Positions 1 through 7,862 of a stretch of DNA of 7,862 nt are shown here, one piece after another. Below the pieces are notes generated by a model. It had not been told where the DNA came from, ran no database searches, and saw only the letters and a program-made list of their open reading frames with translations. The position numbers and the translations under genes were made by a program. The stretch spans positions 1-7,862 of IMG/VR virus record IMGVR_UViG_2548876959_000005. One strand, written 5' to 3'. The DNA is from a virus. Taxonomy: Duplodnaviria; Heunggongvirae; Uroviricota; Caudoviricetes. Every line of letters starts with the position of its first letter. The stretch's first letter is position 1.

Positions 1-65
1 TTAGTTACGAGCGACATTGCTCCGTGTATTCACTCGTTGGAATGAATACACAGTGCTTACTCGTA

Positions 66-536
66 CTAATAAAATACCCAATTTTCTGTTTCTTGGTTGT
101 GCCCAAAGTTATATTCAATATCTGGTGTTGATGTATCAATATTCTTCATCCCATCAACAAGAGTTGATACAACAGCCAAATCTTGTTTGATTCTCATTAA
201 ATGGTATTTCTTCCGGCGCAATAAACTCTCAATGGCAAGTTTCTTCGTTGGGAATGCAAAAGATCTTTCTGCATTTTTTGCTACTTTCTTAATTGCATAT
301 CTATTTCTCCTTTGTTTCCATTCCTGTAACCACTGATTTGGTGCTGGTTTAAAATTAACAATCCAATGCGCAGGAACCAACCATGCATAATGCTCTGTCT
401 GATGAAAAGCTATATATTGAAGTGCGAATATTTTTATCCCATCTTCTTCAACTGTCGCCTGGAATCTCCAGAAAACAGGCATTCCATCATGTTCAGTTTC
501 TGATTCAGGAAAAGGTACGCTCCATGATTTTGTCAT
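66..536 (-). CDS. Hypothetical 156-aa protein, second gene of the pL operon, immediately downstream of N
   Basis: Intact ORF on the minus strand. Its ATG (534-536) lies 8 nt after the N stop codon (545-547), and a GAGGTG ribosome-binding site overlaps that stop, so it is tightly coupled to N. No family recognised from the sequence; Trp/His-rich, soluble-looking. Confidence 0.6.
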   Translation of the reverse strand: MTKSWSVPFPESETEHDGMPVFWRFQATVEEDGIKIFALQYIAFHQTEHYAWLVPAHWIVNFKPAPNQWLQEWKQRRNRYAIKKVAKNAERSFAFPTKKLAIESLLRRKKYHLMRIKQDLAVVSTLVDGMKNIDTSTPDIEYNFGHNQETENWVFY

Positions 537-544
537 ATCTCACC

Positions 545-844
545 TCAAATAAGTGGTTTGCTGCCTAATTTCATTTTCTGGCGACCAACACAAGTCACAC
601 CCATTTCACTGCGTGGCTTGCGGTAGTAAATACGGTTCTGTTTACGCTCGACTTCTTCTGCCTTCTTGCAGCGAAGGCTTCCGAGTGATGCTGCTTTATC
701 TGCTCTGACGCAACCAGAGAGCTTTAGCGCAATTATTCGCGCCAGTCGCTGCTCTTGCATTGCCTGTTCACGTTGAGCCTGTCTGCGTGCTCTGCGGCGA
801 TTTCTGGCGTTATCGTCAGCCAGATATGTAATGACTACTGTCAT
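545..844 (-). CDS. N: Antitermination protein N (lambda/phi21 N family)
   Basis: 99-aa ORF with an N-terminal arginine-rich motif (NARNRRRARRQAQREQ) and a C-terminal segment (RIYYRKPRSEMGVTCVGRQKMKLGSKPLI) that matches the conserved C-terminus of lambdoid N proteins as I recall them. GGAGG ribosome-binding site 5-6 nt upstream of the ATG; sits downstream of pL/nutL. Confidence 0.85.
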   Translation of the reverse strand: MTVVITYLADDNARNRRRARRQAQREQAMQEQRLARIIALKLSGCVRADKAASLGSLRCKKAEEVERKQNRIYYRKPRSEMGVTCVGRQKMKLGSKPLI

Positions 845-951
845 GTTGACCTCCGATGATTGACTTTGGCGGTGACGCGCCGGGTGCTTATCTTCCGGTT
901 GCCGTCGTGCAGCTGCACTTCACGTCACCCCAAAGCCAACTACTCTTTGGT

Positions 952-993
952 TCCCGCATTTCGGCGGGACAATCCCATCAATGTTAAAGAGCC
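952..993 (-). promoter_or_regulatory. nutL: nutL: boxA-like element plus boxB hairpin (N utilisation site)
   Basis: Read on the minus strand: GCTCTTTAACA (boxA-like, plus coordinates 982-992), a 12-nt spacer, then TCCCGCCGAAATGCGGGA (plus 952-969; 6-bp stem, 6-nt loop). The hairpin is identical to the nutR boxB at 2650-2667. Located between pL and the N start, as in lambda. Confidence 0.65.
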
Positions 994-1038
994 TGCCAAT
1001 CTGTTCCGTTTGGCTACCAGCGTCCTGCTGATGGCTAA

Positions 1039-1125
1039 AGAATACTGTAGGTATTTTATTGTGTAAATACCCAAGGTATTTATTTTTGATGAAATAATGA
1101 TAAACAAATGAATACAAAGGATATT
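1039..1125 (-). promoter_or_regulatory. pL promoter with three OL operator-like palindromes
   Basis: Three AATAC-N5-(G/A)TATT sites at 1041-1055, 1066-1080 and 1111-1125. On the minus strand, -35 TTTACA (1062-1067) and -10 TATTCT (1039-1044) with a 17-bp spacer, overlapping sites 1 and 2. Orientation is toward N. Confidence 0.55.
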
Positions 1126-1211
1126 TATTTTTTCGGTATCTGCTTGTTCAGTGCTTTTTATGCGGGATATGTGAAGTGGATCCCGATAGCTATTGCTGCC
1201 GGGATTATGGG

Positions 1212-1580
1212 TTAGTCAGCGAAGGTTAAGACGAGAATTACCTTAATGATGTCTGCTACAACAGACACGGCCATAGATAAACCAAAGACGATCCAAGCCA
1301 TAGAGATGTCTTCACTACCATCGTATAGAGTTCCGTAATCACTGGTGTAAGGCGTAAATGTCGCGCCTTGATACAACAGGTATAAGCTTGATCCATAGAG
1401 GATAAATGCAGATATCCCTTGTATTGCTATGACCACTAGAATCATGAAACGAGCTGATCTATGCGCCCAAGCCTGGCTTATTTTTTCTGATAGAGATTTC
1501 GCAATAAAAGCATGCGCTAAGCCGTAAATTGTTGAGATTGCCAACATCCCAAAAAAGCTTGCTATAGCGGTTCCAACCAT
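1212..1580 (-). CDS. Small integral membrane protein (about 3 predicted transmembrane segments) co-transcribed downstream of cI; candidate exclusion or abortive-infection protein
   Basis: 122-aa ORF with three long hydrophobic stretches. GGGGGA ribosome-binding site 6 nt upstream of its ATG. Starts 19 nt after the cI stop, on the same strand, in the position lambda uses for rexA/rexB. Confidence 0.6.
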   Translation of the reverse strand: MVGTAIASFFGMLAISTIYGLAHAFIAKSLSEKISQAWAHRSARFMILVVIAIQGISAFILYGSSLYLLYQGATFTPYTSDYGTLYDGSEDISMAWIVFGLSMAVSVVADIIKVILVLTFAD

Positions 1581-1599
1581 AAGCGTCCCCCTTGCGTGA

Positions 1600-2316
1600 T
1601 CAAACCAGCCTTAGTTTTGTCTCAATTGCAACGCCTATAATCTTGCAGTTTCCATTGATTGGCACGAGAGGCCATGCAGGGTTAAGTCCCTTGAGGTATT
1701 TATTTCCGCCGTCGATTATCAGCTTCTTGAATGTTGCTTCGTTAGAGTCAGAAAGTTTTGCTATGACCAGGCTGCCGTTGATCGCCTCCCTTCCGGTATC
1801 GAAAAGAACGAATGTTCCCTCTGGAATGCTTAACCCAACCGGTGCCGTCATTGAATCACCTTCCACTTTAAGCCAGAACGCATTGCCTTGAATATGCGCG
1901 TCAGACTCAAGCCAAACATCTATGTCTTTAATGGTGTATGGTTCGCATGCTTCACACCACGAGCCAGCCTGGATACTGCTTAACACCGGATACCTCTTTC
2001 CTGCTCTGTATTCCCCTGCATACCTTACGTTGGCATCGCTCTTAAGGCTTTCTGCCTGTTCTGCAACCTTGGCAGCAATTGACTGGCTAAAATCAGCAAT
2101 TGAGACTTGCAACAAACGTGCAAAACCAGATGCGACCTCAACGTTTAGCGCGTTTCTGCCATTAAGATAATGCCCTACCGCTCCTTGGGTGATACCCAGT
2201 TCATCAGCGATTGAGTATTGGGTTATTCCCAATTCTTTCTTTTTTGACTCATACAAAGCCTTAAGCCGCTTAGCGTCTTCGAGCTGTTCTGTCGTCAGTG
2301 ATTTTTTATTTTCCAT
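1600..2316 (-). CDS. cI: cI-type phage repressor (N-terminal HTH, C-terminal LexA-like S24 autopeptidase domain)
   Basis: 238-aa ORF. N-terminus (LTTEQLEDAKRLKALYESKKKELGITQ) resembles lambda cI. Has the Ala-Gly cleavage site (SIQAGSW), the catalytic-serine motif EGDSMTAP and the lysine motif FKKLI. Divergent from cro across an operator region. Confidence 0.9.
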   Translation of the reverse strand: MENKKSLTTEQLEDAKRLKALYESKKKELGITQYSIADELGITQGAVGHYLNGRNALNVEVASGFARLLQVSIADFSQSIAAKVAEQAESLKSDANVRYAGEYRAGKRYPVLSSIQAGSWCEACEPYTIKDIDVWLESDAHIQGNAFWLKVEGDSMTAPVGLSIPEGTFVLFDTGREAINGSLVIAKLSDSNEATFKKLIIDGGNKYLKGLNPAWPLVPINGNCKIIGVAIETKLRLV

Positions 2317-2351
2317 AGCTTAATTCTAATAGCTAAGGTACTTAAACTAAA

Positions 2352-2393
2352 AATACCCTGAGTATTGATTGCTTTGAATACCTGTAGTATTCT
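2352..2393 (+). promoter_or_regulatory. OR operator sites with pR promoter
   Basis: Palindromes AATACCCTGAGTATT (2352-2366) and GAATACCTGTAGTATTC (2376-2392), same consensus as the OL sites. pR -35 TTGATT (2365-2370) and -10 TATTCT (2388-2393) with a 17-bp spacer. GGAGAG ribosome-binding site at 2412-2417 precedes cro. Confidence 0.6.
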
Positions 2394-2422
2394 TTGTTCA
2401 TGGTTAATAACGGAGAGTGCAT

Positions 2423-2617
2423 ATGATTCGAATGACACTTGCCGATTACGCCAAAATCCATGGACAGGCTAAAGCAGCCAGTGACTTTGGTGTAATCCAG
2501 TGCGCTATCAGCAAGGCCATTCTGGCAGGCCGTAACATTATGGTTACGGTAAAGCCTGATGGCAGTGTGATTGGAGAGGAAGTTCGTCCTTTCCCAAGCA
2601 ACAAGAAAAACAAATAG
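2423..2617 (+). CDS. cro: Cro repressor
   Basis: Small ORF divergent from cI. Sequence ([39 protein letters not shown]...PFPSNKK) is clearly related to lambda Cro. ATG at 2423 chosen for its 6-nt spacing from the ribosome-binding site; the GTG at 2417 in the ORF track is an alternative. Confidence 0.85.
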
Positions 2618-2623
2618 TAACAC

Positions 2624-2667
2624 CGCTCTTTAACAGTCATGGTCCTCATTCCCGCCGAAATGCGGGA
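2624..2667 (+). promoter_or_regulatory. nutR: nutR: boxA plus boxB hairpin
   Basis: CGCTCTTTAACA (2624-2635) closely matches the boxA consensus. After a 14-nt spacer comes TCCCGCCGAAATGCGGGA (2650-2667), a 6-bp stem with a 6-nt loop. Lies between cro and cII, as in lambda. Confidence 0.7.
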
Positions 2668-2674
2668 ATACAAC

Positions 2675-2700
2675 GCGCATAAGTTGATGCGCATAACTTC
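2675..2700 (+). terminator. Possible tR1-like hairpin or pause site downstream of nutR
   Basis: GCGCAT (2675-2680) pairs with ATGCGC (2687-2692) around a 6-nt loop, followed by a moderately T-rich stretch (ATAACTTCTTATTTGTT). Position matches lambda tR1; not a strong intrinsic terminator. Confidence 0.3.
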
Positions 2701-2725
2701 TTATTTGTTAAGGAAATACTTACAT

Positions 2726-3019
2726 ATGGTTCGTGCAAACAAACGCAACGAGGCTCTAAGAATCGAGAGTGCGTTGCTTAACAAAATCGCAATGCTTGGA
2801 ACTGAGAAGACAGCGGAAGCTGTGGGAGTTGATAAGTCGCAGATCAGCAGGTGGAAGAGGGACTGGATTCCAAAGTTCTCAATGCTGCTTGCTGTTCTTG
2901 AATGGGGTGTCGTCGACGACGACATGGCTCGATTGGCACGACAAGTTGCTTCGATTCTCACCAATAAAAAACGCCCGGCGGCAACCGAGCGTTCTGAACA
3001 AATCCAGATGGAATTTTAA
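2726..3019 (+). CDS. cII: Transcriptional activator cII
   Basis: 97-aa ORF (MVRANKRNEALRIESALLNK...ERSEQIQMEF) that I recall as nearly identical to lambda cII. AAGGA ribosome-binding site upstream. The track ORF beginning at 2639 is a spurious 5' extension that runs through nutR. Confidence 0.9.
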   Translation: MVRANKRNEALRIESALLNKIAMLGTEKTAEAVGVDKSQISRWKRDWIPKFSMLLAVLEWGVVDDDMARLARQVASILTNKKRPAATERSEQIQMEF

Positions 3020-3041
3020 TAACATCCAACGAGGTAATTAT

Positions 3042-3314
3042 ATGCGAAACAAAGGCTTTAATCCACCTGATACACACAAAGAAGCCAAGCGTTTGCGCTT
3101 CCTTCGTTCCATTGATGAAAGAACTCAAATCTCTTTTGTGAAAGTTGCCAGAACTGAGCTTCTGAAGGCTGAGGCGAGGGCGTTGCTCCCGTCTCTACCA
3201 AAAGAGGAGGGATATACGTTCATTCCAAACGCATTTCTGGAAAAGCTGCTCAAAGAAGACATATCCGTAAGTCAGTTTAACGATGTTCTTAAGGTCTTTC
3301 GTCAAGGCAGGTAG
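3042..3314 (+). CDS. Hypothetical 90-aa protein inserted between cII and O
   Basis: ORF with a GAGGT ribosome-binding site 7 nt before the ATG at 3042; its stop is 2 nt before the O start. Basic and helical-looking (MRNKGFNPPDTHKEAKRLRFLRSIDERTQ...). The track ORF from 2769 is an out-of-frame overlap with cII; the real start is probably 3042. Confidence 0.55.
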   Translation: MRNKGFNPPDTHKEAKRLRFLRSIDERTQISFVKVARTELLKAEARALLPSLPKEEGYTFIPNAFLEKLLKEDISVSQFNDVLKVFRQGR

Positions 3315-3316
3315 TT

Positions 3317-4264
3317 ATGAGCAATACAGCAAAAATCTACGATTTCAGCGCCGCACACGAGCGCAGGAGCAACAGGATGGAGAACCAGAAAACTGGTTAC
3401 ATTCCGTTGTACCGGAGCATTCTGAAACAGTCATGGGCGAAAGATGTTTATCTTCGCACCCTGTGGGAAAACCTTCTCCTGAATGCCGCCAGAAAGCCAT
3501 ACAAAGCGAATTTCAAAGGTCATGAATGGCATCTGCAACCCGGTCAACTGGTTGTGACAGCAGCTGATTTAGGTCTTCAGTTATGCGACAGACATGGCAA
3601 GCCAGCAAGCCGTGATCAGGTTGAGCGGATGCTTCAGGTTTTTGTGAAAGAGGGGATGATCTCCATTGATGGAGAGAAGCAAAAAGGTCGTGTGATAACC
3701 ATCACAAATTACCATGAATATGCTCAAAAAATGGACAATTTACCCGCACATGAAGCCGCACAAACAACCGCACATGATGCCGCACATGGCGAAGCCAGTA
3801 ATGGCGCGGCTTTCAGCGCACATGCCGCACATGAAAGCGCACATGAAGCCGCACAAACAACCGCACATCATGAACAAGAAGGTATTAACAAGAATATAAA
3901 TAATACCCCCCTACCCCCCAATGGGGGAGGCGATGGGCAGGTTAAACCTGAACGTCGCAAGGCAGAACGAATCGACTACGAATCCTTCCTGAACGCCTAC
4001 AACACCGAAGTCGGTGACAGACTGCCACACGCTGTTGCGGTCAACGAGAAACGCAAACGCCGCCTGAAGAAAATCATCCCGCAACTGAAAACGCCAAACG
4101 TGGACGGTTTCAGAGCGTATGTCAGGGCGTTTGTGCATCAGGCCAAGCCGTTTTACTTCGGAGACAACGACACGGGCTGGACAGCTGATTTTGATTACCT
4201 GCTGAGGGAAGATTCGTTAACTGGAGTACGGGAAGGGAAGTTTGCAGACAGGGGGATTGCATGA
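3317..4264 (+). CDS. O: Replication initiator protein, O-like (origin-binding N-terminal domain, repeat linker, C-terminal domain)
   Basis: 315-aa ORF starting MSNTAKI, like lambda O. Internal repeat-encoded linker ([10 protein letters not shown]...) contains the iterons. C-terminal motif [10 protein letters not shown]. Its stop overlaps the helicase start (ATGA at 4261-4264). Confidence 0.8.
3744..3905 (+). repeat. Putative replication origin inside the O gene: about 9 iteron copies followed by an AT-rich segment
   Basis: Tandem units of roughly 12 bp (CCGCACATGAAG / CCGCACAAACAA / CCGCACATGATG / CCGCACATGGCG) at 3744-3791, then five more at 3817-3872. Includes a 31-bp direct repeat (3745-3775 and 3839-3869). 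Followed by AT-rich AACAAGAAGGTATTAACAAGAATATAAATAATA (3873-3905) and then a C-run/G-run element. Confidence 0.65.
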
Positions 4265-5637
4265 GACAGGATATCGAAGCGAGCGTTATCGGTGGCCTGC
4301 TGATTGGTGGATTAACACCAACTGCCAGTGACGTTCTGGCAACGCTTGAGCCGGAAGCGTTTTCAATTCCGCTCTACCGGAAAGCCTTCGAGGTTATCCG
4401 CAAGCAGGCGCGAAACAGAAAACTAATCGACGCGATGATGGTTGCCGAGGCGTGCGGAGAGGAGCATTTCACGTCAATCCTGATGACCAGCAAAAACTGC
4501 CCGAGCGCCGCAAACCTGAAGGGATATGCCGGAATGGTCGCGGATAACTATCACCGCCGTCTGGTGCTGGAAATCATGGATGAAATGCGTGAACCAATTC
4601 AGAGCGGAACCATCGACGCATCGAGTCAGGCGATGGATGAGCTTGTAAAGCGTCTTTCAGCCATCAGAAAGCCCCGTGACGAGGTTAAACCGGTACGGTT
4701 AGGGGAAATCATTACTGACTACACTGACACGCTTGACAGGCGTCTGAGGAACGGAGAAGAGTCAGATACCCTGAAGACCGGAATCGAAGAACTTGATGCC
4801 ATCACCGGAGGGATGAACGCGGAAGACCTGGTGATAATCGCTGCTCGTCCTGGTATGGGGAAAACAGAACTGGCGCTGAAGATTGCCGAAGGCGTTGCAA
4901 GCCGCGTTATTCCTGGTTCTGACGTCCGGCGCGGAGTATTGATTTTCTCAATGGAAATGAGCGCATTGCAGATTGCAGAGCGAAGTATTGCCAACGCCGG
5001 GAGGATGTCGGTTAGCGTGCTGCGAAATCCTGCATCGATGGATGACGAAGGCTGGGCGCGTGTTGCTAACGGCATGAGTCAGCTTGCAGATTTGGATGTA
5101 TGGGTAGTCGATGCCTCGCGGTTATCGGTCGAAGAAATACGCTCAATCGCAGAACGGCATAAACAGGAAAATCCAAACCTGTCACTCATCATGGCGGATT
5201 ATCTTGGCCTGATTGAGAAGCCGAAAGCAGATCGCAACGACCTCGCAATTGCTCACATCTCCAGAAGCCTGAAGGCGATGGCGAAAGACCTGAAAACGCC
5301 AGTTATCTCCCTAAGTCAGCTTTCGCGCGATGTTGAGAAGCGACCAAATAAACGACCGACAAACGCAGATTTGCGTGATTCAGGAAGCATTGAACAGGAC
5401 GCAGACTCAATCATCATGCTCTATCGGGAAGCGGTATATGACGAGAACAGTAGCGCCGCGCCATTTGCTGAAATCATCGTGACGAAAAACCGTTTTGGCT
5501 CGCTTGGTACGGTTTACCAGCGGTTCTGTAACGGACACTTTGTGGCATGTGACCAGGATGAAGCCAGACAGATTTGCACAGCATCAAATGCACCTGCTGC
5601 GCGTGGCAGACGATATGCACAAGGGGCTGACGTATGA
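4261..5637 (+). CDS. Replicative DNA helicase, DnaB family (phage-encoded)
   Basis: 458-aa ORF with a Walker A motif (AARPGMGKT), a Walker B-like region (LIMADYLGL) and an [10 protein letters not shown] arginine-finger-type motif typical of DnaB-family helicases. Start overlaps the O stop. Confidence 0.9.
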
Positions 5638-5662
5638 CCATCTACATCACTGAGCTTGTAAC

Positions 5663-5694
5663 AGGCCTGCTGGTAATCGCAGGCCTTTTTATTT
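5663..5694 (+). terminator. Rho-independent terminator (tR2-like) after the replication genes
   Basis: Perfect 8-bp GC-rich stem AGGCCTGC (5663-5670) / GCAGGCCT (5679-5686) with an 8-nt loop, followed by TTTTTATTT. Confidence 0.65.
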
Positions 5695-5709
5695 GGGGGA
5701 GAGTAAATC

Positions 5710-5916
5710 GTGGTTGAGTTGATTTTTTCTGCATTGAGGATTCTCGGTGCCATGTGGATGGTGGCGACGTTCATTGTGGTTGCCAGCAGTTTTGTCCGGT
5801 TGGTAGGCGAAGGTAAAGACCTGGCGGGTGTGATTTTCGGTAGCATTCTCCTGTGGGTGATTATCGGTGTTGCGCCTGTCGCTGTAGCAAAAATGGCGTG
5901 GCGTTTTGTGAGTTGA
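5710..5916 (+). CDS. Small hydrophobic membrane protein (68 aa, about 2 transmembrane segments)
   Basis: ORF from a GTG start with a GGGAGAG ribosome-binding site 7 nt upstream; two long hydrophobic stretches. Lies just after the tR2-like terminator in the lambda ren position. Could also start at an internal ATG. Confidence 0.45.
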   Translation: MVELIFSALRILGAMWMVATFIVVASSFVRLVGEGKDLAGVIFGSILLWVIIGVAPVAVAKMAWRFVS

Positions 5917-5933
5917 ACTGAGGGTAAGTATCG

Positions 5934-6311
5934 ATGGACGAATCAAGAAAGCAGTTTGAAGAAAGTTGGTTGCGACGTGGGGGCGAATCTTCAGACCTTA
6001 TCCGTTACCCTGAAAATCACCATGAAATTGGCAGCGGTAATATTGGTGGTCAATACGTGATGGACGATGTTCAAGGCCACTGGCAAACGTGGCAGGCATC
6101 GCGAGCAGCTATTGAACTGGATATCGACTGGCCCGAGTCGAATGACGACTTCTGGAAAGATGGTGAAGAAGGCGCTTATGCGATGGGCTATATGGATGGG
6201 CGTGACAAAACGGTAATTGTAGTAATGAAAGCTATCAGAGCCGCTGGAATTAAAGAGAAGAATTTCGATGAAGCAAATATACATGCTTCGCAACGAAGCA
6301 ATCAGAAATAA
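5934..6311 (+). CDS. Hypothetical acidic 125-aa protein
   Basis: ORF with a GAGGG ribosome-binding site 8 nt upstream of the ATG. Acidic and Trp-rich (DIDWPESNDDFWKDGEEGAY). 3' end overlaps the ninB start by 44 nt. No family recognised. Confidence 0.55.
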   Translation: MDESRKQFEESWLRRGGESSDLIRYPENHHEIGSGNIGGQYVMDDVQGHWQTWQASRAAIELDIDWPESNDDFWKDGEEGAYAMGYMDGRDKTVIVVMKAIRAAGIKEKNFDEANIHASQRSNQK

Positions 6312-6714
6312 CGCTATAGACGCAATACTCTCACTTCCGATCGACGACAAGTCACCTCACGAAGTCCACGTCAAAGAACCTAAGCGAACCAAAGCGCAGA
6401 ACGACCGTATGTGGCCGATGCTTCAGGACGTTTCCCGTCAGGTGCTATGGCATGGTCAACGGCTGGCGCCGGAAGACTGGAAAGACCTGTTCACTGCCCT
6501 GTGGCTTAAGACCAAAAAATTGGAGCAACGAAGTGTGCCTGGTATCGATGGTGGTGTTGTCATGCTTGGCGTGCGTACCAGCAAAATGCGAAAGGCCAGC
6601 ATGACTGAGCTTATCGAAATCATGTTCTGGTTCGGCTCAGAGCGCAACGTGCGGTGGAGTGATGACTCCCGGCGAGAGTATGAATGGTCACAACGAAAAG
6701 GGAAGGCTGCATGA
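6268..6714 (+). CDS. ninB: NinB/Orf-family recombination protein
   Basis: 148-aa ORF that aligns by eye with lambda NinB over conserved blocks (QNDRMWPMLQDVSRQVLWHG, SERNVRWSDDSRREYEW). Its stop overlaps the next start (ATGA). Confidence 0.8.
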   Translation: MKQIYMLRNEAIRNNAIDAILSLPIDDKSPHEVHVKEPKRTKAQNDRMWPMLQDVSRQVLWHGQRLAPEDWKDLFTALWLKTKKLEQRSVPGIDGGVVMLGVRTSKMRKASMTELIEIMFWFGSERNVRWSDDSRREYEWSQRKGKAA

Positions 6715-7238
6715 CTATCAAATCAAATACGCCAGCACACGACAAGGACTGCTGGCAAACGCCGCTTTGGCTTTTTGATGCACTGGATATTGAGTTTGGA
6801 TTCTGGCTGGATTCGGCAGCGAGCGACAAAAATGCTCTGTGCGCTCACTGGCTAACTGAGGCTGACGACGCGCTAAATTCTGAGTGGATAAGCCACGGTG
6901 CAATCTGGAATAACCCACCGTACAGCAATATCAGGCCGTGGGTGGAAAAAGCCGCTGAGCAGTGCATACAACAGCGACAGACGGTAGTGATGCTTGTGCC
7001 AGAGGATATGTCTGTCGGATGGTTCAGCAAGGCTCTGGAGAGTGTTGACGAAGTTCGTATTATCACTGATGGACGGATTAATTTTATCGAACCATCGACA
7101 GGGCTGGAGAAGAAGGGAAACAGCAAAGGCTCCATGCTGCTGATTTGGCGACCGTTCATTAGTCCTCGACGGATGTTTACTACCGTATCCAAAGCGGCAT
7201 TGATGGCGATCGGGCAGGGCGTCAGGAGGGCGGCATGA
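6711..7238 (+). CDS. Phage DNA N6-adenine methyltransferase (Dam family)
   Basis: ORF with a [13 protein letters not shown] motif and the catalytic NPPYS motif typical of phage Dam-type methyltransferases. Start set at ATG 6711 (GGGAAGG ribosome-binding site, overlaps the ninB stop) rather than the upstream ATG 6684 in the track. Confidence 0.8.
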
Positions 7239-7411
7239 GACGACAGCGACGAAGTATCACCGACATCATCTGCGAAAACTGCAAATACCTTCCAACGAAA
7301 CGCTCCAGAAATAAACGCAAGCCAATCCCAAAAGAATCTGACGTAAAAACCTTCAACTACACGGCTCACCTGTGGGATATCCGGTGGCTAAGACATCGTG
7401 CGAGGAAATGA
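7235..7411 (+). CDS. ninE: NinE-like small basic protein
   Basis: 58-aa ORF not in the supplied track ([58 protein letters not shown]), translated by hand; matches my recollection of lambda NinE. ATG overlaps the methyltransferase stop (ATGA). Confidence 0.7.
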
Positions 7412-7413
7412 CA

Positions 7414-7773
7414 ATGGATTATTCACAGTTAAGTGATTTTGAAATTAACGTGGCGGTATTCGAAGCCATTCATAACGGATCACCGGATTACAAAGAAGGT
7501 GAGAATGGCGCGATGGTGTTTATCTCATTTGAGGGAGACATTGTAAACGGAGACGCAGTTGAAGTAGAAGTTGAGCGCGGATCCTTTAACCCATGCGCAA
7601 ACCCAGCAGACGCATGGCCGATTATTGAAAAATACAGGATTAGCATTATCAATCTCGATGAAGACGAGTGGGGTGCACGCGGTGTGGCCTACTGTAAATC
7701 TAAGCGAGCTATACATGAAAATCCCCTCCGCGCCGCCATGATTGTCTTTCTCATGATGCAGAGAATCCAATAA
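7414..7773 (+). CDS. Hypothetical nin-region protein (119 aa)
   Basis: ORF with a GAGGA ribosome-binding site 7 nt upstream of ATG 7414. ATG 7408, which overlaps the ninE stop, is an alternative; the track's 7372 start is unlikely. Acidic; its stop overlaps the ninF start (TAATG). Confidence 0.6.
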   Translation: MDYSQLSDFEINVAVFEAIHNGSPDYKEGENGAMVFISFEGDIVNGDAVEVEVERGSFNPCANPADAWPIIEKYRISIINLDEDEWGARGVAYCKSKRAIHENPLRAAMIVFLMMQRIQ

Positions 7774-7862
7774 TGCTTAGCCCATCCCAATCCCTTCAAT
7801 ACCAGAAAGAAAGCGTCGAGCGAGCTTTAACGTGCGCTAACTGCGGTCAGAAGCTGCATGTG
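7773..7862 (+). CDS. ninF: NinF-like protein, 5' portion (runs off the window end)
   Basis: Hand translation from ATG 7773 gives MLSPSQSLQYQKESVERALTCANCGQKLHV, which matches my recollection of the lambda NinF N-terminus (Cys-x-x-Cys zinc-ribbon-like start). Truncated by the window edge. Confidence 0.6.
   Translation, partial: MLSPSQSLQYQKESVERALTCANCGQKLHV

Follow-up and report, generated by a model that had tools for sequence, protein, structure and literature searches.

ORF90, a conserved 90-residue gene between cII and O in the replication region of lambdoid phages

In lambdoid phages, the genes cII and O are arranged in a cII–oop–orf–O layout (Hayes et al., PMC3349717), in which the "orf" position is a variable slot that holds orf48 in P22, gp53 in HK97 and nothing in lambda. 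In this report, we are describing ORF90, a 90-codon open reading frame (ORF) that fills this slot in a 7,862-nucleotide (nt) stretch of Caudoviricetes DNA (IMG/VR record IMGVR_UViG_2548876959_000005, positions 1 to 7,862; "the window"), which represents the region for immunity and replication in a lambdoid prophage or phage. Since the layout is already in the literature, ORF90 counts as a further occupant of a known variable slot, and an extra gene at the cII–O position is not new in itself. What is new is the sequence type, which differs from the known slot genes P22 orf48/HK620 hkaW and HK97 gp53. ORF90 is a real feature, but of an ordinary kind in lambdoid mosaicism, and no new class of element.

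Among the closest described counterparts is orf48 of P22 (DUF2740/PF10872, phrog_1913; the family includes HK620 hkaW). Like ORF90, it directly follows c1/cII and the oop terminator, is small and basic, and carries the oop −10 element over its start codon, while at its 3' end it runs into the beginning of the O-type gene 18 (PMC3349717). Unlike ORF90, it comprises only 48 amino acids (aa), about half the length, and lacks the O-like C-terminal motif described below. The slot ORF of HK97 (gp53) and HK022 occupies the identical slot and shows the identical overlap with the oop promoter and with O, but has no detectable sequence similarity to ORF90. In lambda, the oop transcript has its 5' end at 38675, and its −10 (CATAAT) is located 8–13 nt away, over the ATG of O (PMC5869508). 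In the literature on DUF2740, orf48 or a named function, no functional study was found, and the paper on the Eru replication region does not mention ORF90. PHROGs calls phrog_1913 a "tail protein", which is almost certainly a mis-annotation because orf48 sits between c1 and gene 18.

A conserved gene in a variable slot

The genes on which the comparison is based are the following:

2726..3019, plus strand: cII, lambda type, 97 aa (Pfam Phage_CII, E = 1.7e-48)
3042..3314, plus strand: ORF90, the 90-aa gene of PHROG 2519, stop codon included (phrog_2519, E = 1.9e-57)
3317..4264, plus strand: O-type replication initiator, 315 aa (Phage_rep_O, E = 3e-15; phrog_345, E = 6e-100)
4261..5637, plus strand: DnaB-type replicative helicase, partner of O (DnaB_C, E = 7e-79; DnaB N-terminal domain, E = 3e-13)
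3031..3034, plus strand: Shine–Dalgarno (SD) sequence GAGG of ORF90, read from the sequence, 7 nt before the ATG
3315..3336, plus strand: O start, where the lambda junction/pO sequence recurs as a degenerate second copy (20 of 22 nt as at the lambda O start)

A first-pass annotation, made from the letters of the window, had proposed an extra gene between a lambda-like cII and O, and the alignment with lambda bears this out. The cII DNA is 98% identical to that of lambda up to base 3015, where the similarity ends; the 34-nt cII–O spacer of lambda is replaced by about 299 nt (3016–3314), after which similarity resumes at 3315–3336. The junction with lambda, which lacks the gene, is defined by this comparison. 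At the start of O, the lambda-type −10 has lost its final T (CATAAC, minus strand); this degenerate second junction copy is probably inactive. In Stx2a-converting phages (e.g., locus L002), nucleotide similarity to the window begins at base 2957, within the cII 3' end where the oop terminator lies, and runs through ORF90 into O; the oop/cII-end segment therefore serves as the module's left recombination joint.

ORF90 starts at ATG 3042–3044 and ends at TAG 3312–3314. A 181-aa ORF (2769..3314) represents the same frame extended back to a GTG inside cII; MRNK or MRKI at the 3042 ATG is, however, the N-terminus of all full-length homologues. The ribosome-binding site that had been noted from the sequence is indeed in place, as GAGG 7 nt ahead of this ATG, and "GAGGTnAATTATATG" is kept in most lineages, with GGAGT in loci L020 and L021 and TAGGT in L023. 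Database entries P0001, P0002, P0035, P0014 and P0023 are N-terminally over-extended or fused to cII or Dam fragments (120–164 aa); these are presumably start-codon miscalls or assembly/frameshift artefacts. In the record of phage CUS-3, ORF90 is unannotated.

Many spurious ORFs of 40–120 aa overlap the ORF90 region, so that length alone is no proof of a gene. ORF90 is nevertheless judged to be a genuine phage gene under strong purifying selection, because it is conserved, with a ratio of nonsynonymous to synonymous substitution (dN/dS) of 0.07–0.16 in pairwise comparisons between lineages (dS from about 0.6 to saturation) and with varying third positions. The codon table displays runs of invariant residues that are encoded by different codons in each lineage, with third positions varying freely. 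A lack of conservation or of coding constraint among relatives, which would have spoken against the gene, was thus not observed; equally, no homologue with a tested function, in replication or otherwise, was found.

The profile of phrog_2519 (function unknown) aligns over its full length (1–90 of 90) with ORF90 residues 1–90, and PHROG 2519 is matched by all 19 aligned relatives. ORF90 occurs in 57 deposited phage records; CUS-3, Gally, JEP4, HF4s, Kapi1, TL-2011a and about 49 Stx2a-converting phages carry copies that are 98–100% identical. Of 5426 complete Escherichia coli genomes, 279 (about 5%) contain the gene, annotated there as "hypothetical protein". Homologues with 71–80% identity, mostly of 90 aa and two of 86 aa, come from Salmonella, Scandinavium, Pseudescherichia and metagenomes. 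Among all full-length members, the majority have exactly 90 aa, some have 86, and the most divergent have 92–93. A scan of species-representative genomes returned ORF90 at two loci only, in Scandinavium and Pseudescherichia, and the family profile had 15 matches among 1.84 billion representative proteins, mostly short proteins, the two long ones being partial low-complexity alignments. The family is small. In the full-length lineages examined, there are no frameshifts and no internal stops, and what members at 41–62% identity retain most is the C-terminal motif G-[YF]-x-F-I-P-N-x-F-[LM]-[DE]-x-L-L-K-x-D-[LF]-S-V-x-Q-F-N-x-[VI]-L-x-x-F. This O-like motif is the best-conserved part of the protein, with I61, P62, N63, F79, L83 and F86 invariant.

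At each locus recovered, ORF90 immediately follows a Phage_CII gene and immediately precedes an O-like gene; the further surroundings vary. The immunity regions differ among the loci. The adjacent O usually has an N-terminal domain of the "MENQK-G-[YH]-x-x-L-[YF]-R-S" type, of which there are two subtypes of about 45% identity; at locus L021, ORF90 precedes an O with an N-terminal domain of the P22/HK97 type. The gene downstream of O encodes either a DnaB-like helicase, a lambda-P-like loader or a 797-aa helicase. Conversely, the same O N-terminal domain is found behind other slot genes: a 265-aa ParB-like protein in Klebsiella phages, and an Ant/KilAC protein together with a 59-aa ORF in Yersinia phages, while Enterobacter phage ENT1 has an HK97-gp53-like ORF before a MENQK-type O.

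The term moron, in the sense of Juhala and Hendrix, denotes an autonomous accessory transcription unit in a phage genome with its own promoter and terminator and a deviant composition. ORF90 had initially been taken for a moron-type insertion into the pR operon; the placement in the operon is supported, the moron label is not. Like the morons of lambdoid phages, ORF90 is present or absent between near-identical neighbours (lambda has a 98% identical cII and a similar O start, and lacks the gene). Unlike them, it carries neither a promoter nor a terminator of its own, does not deviate in composition, and is embedded in, and predicted to be coupled to, the early operon. The plus-strand scan of 2300–3600 detected no promoter-like or terminator-like site; the gaps measure 22 nt to the cII stop and 2 nt to the O start; and the G+C content of ORF90 is an ordinary 0.447, compared with cII at 0.486, O at 0.498 and the window at 0.476. 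Furthermore, ORF90 is wired into the oop and O signals, and part of its product is similar to a replication protein. Having no plus-strand promoter or terminator of its own, ORF90 must be transcribed from pR along with cII and O, so that its expression is to be expected early in infection and on induction.

Signals at the two ends of ORF90

Nucleotide-level conservation beyond the needs of the protein is confined to the two ends of the gene, "GAGGTnAATTATATGCGA" and "CGTCAAGGCAGGTAG". The elements concerned are:

2968..2995, minus strand: intrinsic terminator of the oop type (tO), located within the cII 3' end (terminator scan: 12 pairs, then a T-run)
2965..3030, minus strand: predicted oop-like antisense RNA with a deduced 5' end, about 66 nt long, which would pair with the last ~55 nt of cII
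3037..3042, minus strand: candidate −10 of the oop promoter, TATAAT, overlapping the A of the ORF90 ATG
3060..3065, minus strand: candidate −35, TGGATT, read from the sequence (3 of 6 matches, 17-nt spacer; weak)
3304..3311, plus strand: SD sequence for O, AAGGCAGG, inside the last ORF90 codons

At the 5' end, all ORF90 lineages examined, including those with only 51–58% protein identity, share an unchanged "AATTATATGCGAAA" on the plus strand. On the minus strand this sequence reads TTTCGCATATAAT and contains a consensus −10 at 3042–3037, with the oop terminator (2995–2968) about 45 nt beyond it. The tO sequence of the window is identical to that of lambda, and its hairpin is retained across 11 lambdoid loci with compensatory changes at 5 of the 12 pairs. 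A −10 of the sequence CATAAT overlies the start codon of O in lambda, of orf48 in P22 and of gp53 in HK97 in the same manner as at ORF90, and the P22 record annotates an oop promoter over the orf48 start. The TATAAT over the ORF90 start is therefore likely the −10 of an oop promoter, and the invariant −10, the conserved tO and the parallels in lambda and P22 together suggest an oop-like antisense RNA of about 66 nt. Its ends were predicted from the −10 at 3042–3037 and from the 3' end of lambda oop mapped onto the window, using the published lambda data (PMC5869508, PMC3349717). The pO–oop–tO unit of lambda shares with the window the identical terminator in the 3' end of cII and a −10 over the first gene after cII; it differs in that the promoter is carried by O and not by ORF90, in the −10 sequence (CATAAT instead of TATAAT), and in the length of the RNA (77 nt vs. 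the predicted ~66 nt). An Rfam search of the window found no family, which leaves oop with no usable model there. A second weak terminator-like hairpin is present on the minus strand inside ORF90 (3087–3100; AAGCGCAAACGCTT, followed by a poor T-run); their number in the region is as expected by chance.

Whatever its identity, the gene downstream of cII appears to bear the oop promoter over its start codon. This implies that module exchange must preserve the antisense element and the start codon at one end and the translation signals of O at the other.

At the 3' end, the ORF90 stop is 2 nt before the ATG of O in the window and its close relatives, with an ATGA overlap in distant relatives (L020 and L021). 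The stretch "CGTCAAGG(C/A)AGGTAGnnATG", which includes the rare codon AGG, keeps its nucleotide sequence in lineages that are otherwise saturated at synonymous sites; one further base is different in L023 (CGTCAGGGC). The stop–start and SD geometry is that required for translational coupling, which may accordingly operate between ORF90 and O.

The start of O is probably at 3317. The first 20 codons (3317–3376), encoding an MSNTAK... leader, are conserved in all lineages, and this leader resembles the lambda O N-terminus MTNTAKILNF, which is a ClpX recognition signal. Several database annotations begin O 60 nt later, at MENQK. The O of the window (3317–4264) is itself a mosaic: its N-terminal domain is about 24% identical to that of lambda O, and its C-terminal 130 aa are 95% identical to HK97 gpO, in agreement with the DnaB-type helicase encoded downstream. 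Relatives with the same N-terminal domain have a lambda-type C-terminal domain and a lambda-P-like partner.

Resemblances of the ORF90 protein and competing explanations

The ORF90 product (10.5 kDa) has an isoelectric point of 9.99. An AlphaFold2 model, built with 19 relatives as input, is confident, with a mean predicted local distance difference test score of 83.7, and comprises four helices (residues 10–23, 26–51, 63–71 and 76–87) and a small β-hairpin (54–59), in line with the basic, helical protein that had been expected from the translation. Two segments resemble proteins of the same phage region:

3063..3173, plus strand: codons 8–44, weakly similar to P22 orf48/DUF2740 (phrog_1913, hhalign)
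3198..3305, plus strand: codons 53–88, resembling the O-type N-terminal winged-helix domain (PF04492) in its first strand and two helices

At the C-terminus, ORF90 itself aligns with positions 6–39 of the 95 positions of Phage_rep_O (PF04492) at 14.6 bits (E = 0.048), under the gathering score of 28.7 bits; across the family, 16 of 19 members match about the same positions, the best at E = 5e-5. O-like PHROGs are matched as well—phrog_678 by 16 and phrog_2365 by 10 of the 19 members—along with DnaD-like PHROGs. When the family profile was aligned with the N-terminal 80 residues of the initiators, HK97 gpO scored 21.8 bits, lambda O 13.3 and P22 gp18 9.6, and none of 4000 composition-preserving shuffles of each initiator reached the real score. 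With the PF04492 initiators of lambda, P22 and HK97, residues 53–88 share a "G-Y/F-x-x-I-P/A-N ... L-S/T-x-x-Q-F/L ... R-K" segment that covers the first ~35 residues of the domain. The aligned part spans "DDGY..." to "...LRK" and breaks off immediately ahead of the conserved TYGWNK and of the recognition helix; unlike the initiators, ORF90 lacks this helix, the wing, and the C-terminal half that recruits the helicase or loader. The model likewise contains only a strand–helix–helix unit at the C-terminus. Since the segment stops before the recognition helix, ORF90 cannot be a complete origin-binding domain. Its identification as a Phage_rep_O initiator was ruled out by the sub-threshold score, the partial domain and the missing C-terminal half.

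Towards the N-terminus, phrog_1913 is matched by 10 of the 19 members (best E = 0.0024), and hhalign aligns ORF90 8–44 co-linearly with orf48 9–39 (P = 0.013) through H-K-x-x-x-R-x-R-F-L-x-S ... F ... R-x-E-L-x-K. Six of 4000 shuffles reached the real score, and PF10872 (DUF2740) was matched at E ≤ 1 by none of the 19 members. The protein thus looks chimeric, with a basic, orf48-like N-terminal helical hairpin and 35 O-like residues at the C-terminus. The two weak matches are jointly suggestive because their order, orf48 followed by gene 18, is the gene order in P22. A fusion of an orf48-like gene with the 5' stub of an O gene is a plausible origin, which on these alignments we consider slightly favoured. 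A single event for both the O-like stub and the HK97-like C-terminal domain of the present O was rejected, given that the stub is about 30% and the C-terminal domain 95% identical to HK97 gpO. The chimeric make-up, together with the oop −10 over the ORF90 start as in orf48 and gp53, may be new.

With about even confidence, we regard ORF90 as an early pR-operon gene of composite origin in the variable "orf" slot, coupled to O and with a dispensable replication-accessory role. The fusion would have arisen when a replication module was swapped in and left the 5' stub of an older O attached to an orf48-like gene. Translation of ORF90 would deliver ribosomes to O, and the protein, presumably unable to bind DNA as a complete winged helix, would serve as a dispensable accessory that modulates replication initiation via protein–protein contacts of its O-like motif.

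A number of results weigh against this proposal. At least two types of O N-terminal domain and three kinds of helicase or loader partner speak against a pairing of ORF90 with one initiator, and the occurrence of unrelated slot genes with the same O type, and of none in lambda, means that O does not need ORF90. Concerning coupling, the predicted mRNA structure masks the O ribosome-binding site in only 4 of 7 lineages. With regard to the oop promoter, the promoter scan left the candidate site below threshold and uncalled, its −35 being poor. As for the chimeric origin, the N-terminal likeness to orf48 is weak (P about 0.01), hhalign of ORF90 against the O family of its own phage is not significant (E = 0.52), and fold searches with ORF90 found nothing, nor did the family sequence profile match any PDB entry. 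Among the 1.84 billion representatives there was no full-length initiator whose N-terminus resembled ORF90, and the donor, the "old O", was thus not recovered; for this reason, the fusion origin is a model and not a demonstration.

The free combination with O domains and helicases and the interchangeable slot genes fit equally well with ORF90 being accessory cargo that acts on the host or on the lysis–lysogeny decision (e.g., on CII stability, host proteases or cell physiology) instead of on replication, the slot being merely permissive. Also the different immunity regions with which ORF90 combines, the ParB-like, Ant/KilAC and gp53-like alternatives, orf48 in P22 and the empty slot of lambda, as well as the co-transcription with cII, are in keeping with such a role, which we regard as a serious but less probable possibility. 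It has to be reconciled with the absence of an own promoter, terminator or compositional signature, so that ORF90 is no moron by the standard definition, and with the expectation that a repressed prophage would not express the gene. In addition, conservation culminates in the O-like motif, and ORF90 matches neither defence nor anti-defence models (no match to the PADLOC-DB defence models at E ≤ 0.01). Rather unlikely is a mainly cis-acting spacer, i.e., a frame kept open for the oop promoter at its 5' end and for the ribosome-binding site and coupling of O at its 3' end, whose protein has little or no function. The restriction of nucleotide-level conservation to the two ends is in favour of such a spacer, and P22 orf48 and HK97 gp53 share the geometry though mutually unrelated in sequence; but purifying selection acts on the amino acids over the whole length (dN/dS about 0.1, with saturated synonymous sites), 40 or more residues are invariant, which is beyond the need of a mere coupling leader, and lambda manages without such an ORF.

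That ORF90 is a chance ORF or a functionless, decaying remnant of a replaced O is very improbable. The C-terminal third does resemble a truncated O N-terminus, and the gene went without annotation in CUS-3; yet the low dN/dS at saturated dS across lineages, the intact frames and the occurrence in 279 E. coli genomes and 57 phage records are at odds with decay, and the coding-constraint analysis effectively refutes this explanation. An improbable variant of an action on initiators is that ORF90 serves as an "initiator decoy", a truncated mimic of the lambda/HK97/P22-type O N-terminus that would bind and poison or modulate the initiators of competitors. ORF90 is more similar to O of this type than to the O of its own phage. 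Were this the case, a decoy made early after induction would confer an advantage over competing lambdoid phages or co-resident prophages in multiply lysogenic E. coli, where ORF90 is common.

With these data, ORF90 is no longer a possible insertion but a conserved early gene, and the slot that it occupies in the replication region of lambdoid phages is defined and prone to recombination. If the fusion origin is true, it would be a concrete example of a new gene born from a recombination scar; if ORF90 acts on initiators, one of the most thoroughly studied replication systems would gain a regulator, while the practical importance of ORF90 would otherwise be modest.

Other features of the window

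Besides the genes discussed above, the window contains the following features:

66–536, minus strand: 156-aa ORF downstream of the N-like gene
545–844, minus strand: N-like antiterminator
1212–1580, minus strand: 122-aa ORF with several hydrophobic segments, just past the 3' end of the cI-type repressor gene, toward the N-like gene
1600–2316, minus strand: cI-type repressor with a Peptidase_S24 domain
2417–2617, plus strand: lambda-type Cro
3745–3872, inside the O gene: six overlapping repeat copies with a 12-nt period (CCGCACATGAAG / CCGCACAAACAA / CCGCACATGATG)
After the helicase gene: NinB, Dam and NinX genes, in that order
6684–7238: Dam-type N6-adenine methyltransferase of the nin region (Pfam Dam, E = 1e-64), overlapping the end of ninB by about 30 nt

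The repeats at 3745–3872 encode a His/Ala-rich linker of O and are probably the origin repeats of this replication type, because the iterons of the lambda ori are located at this place. An NCBIfam search returned no match for ORF90, cII or O, and neither the 156-aa nor the 122-aa ORF has a Pfam or PADLOC match. The position of the 122-aa ORF is that of the rex genes in lambda, and its product may be an exclusion or membrane protein expressed from the prophage.

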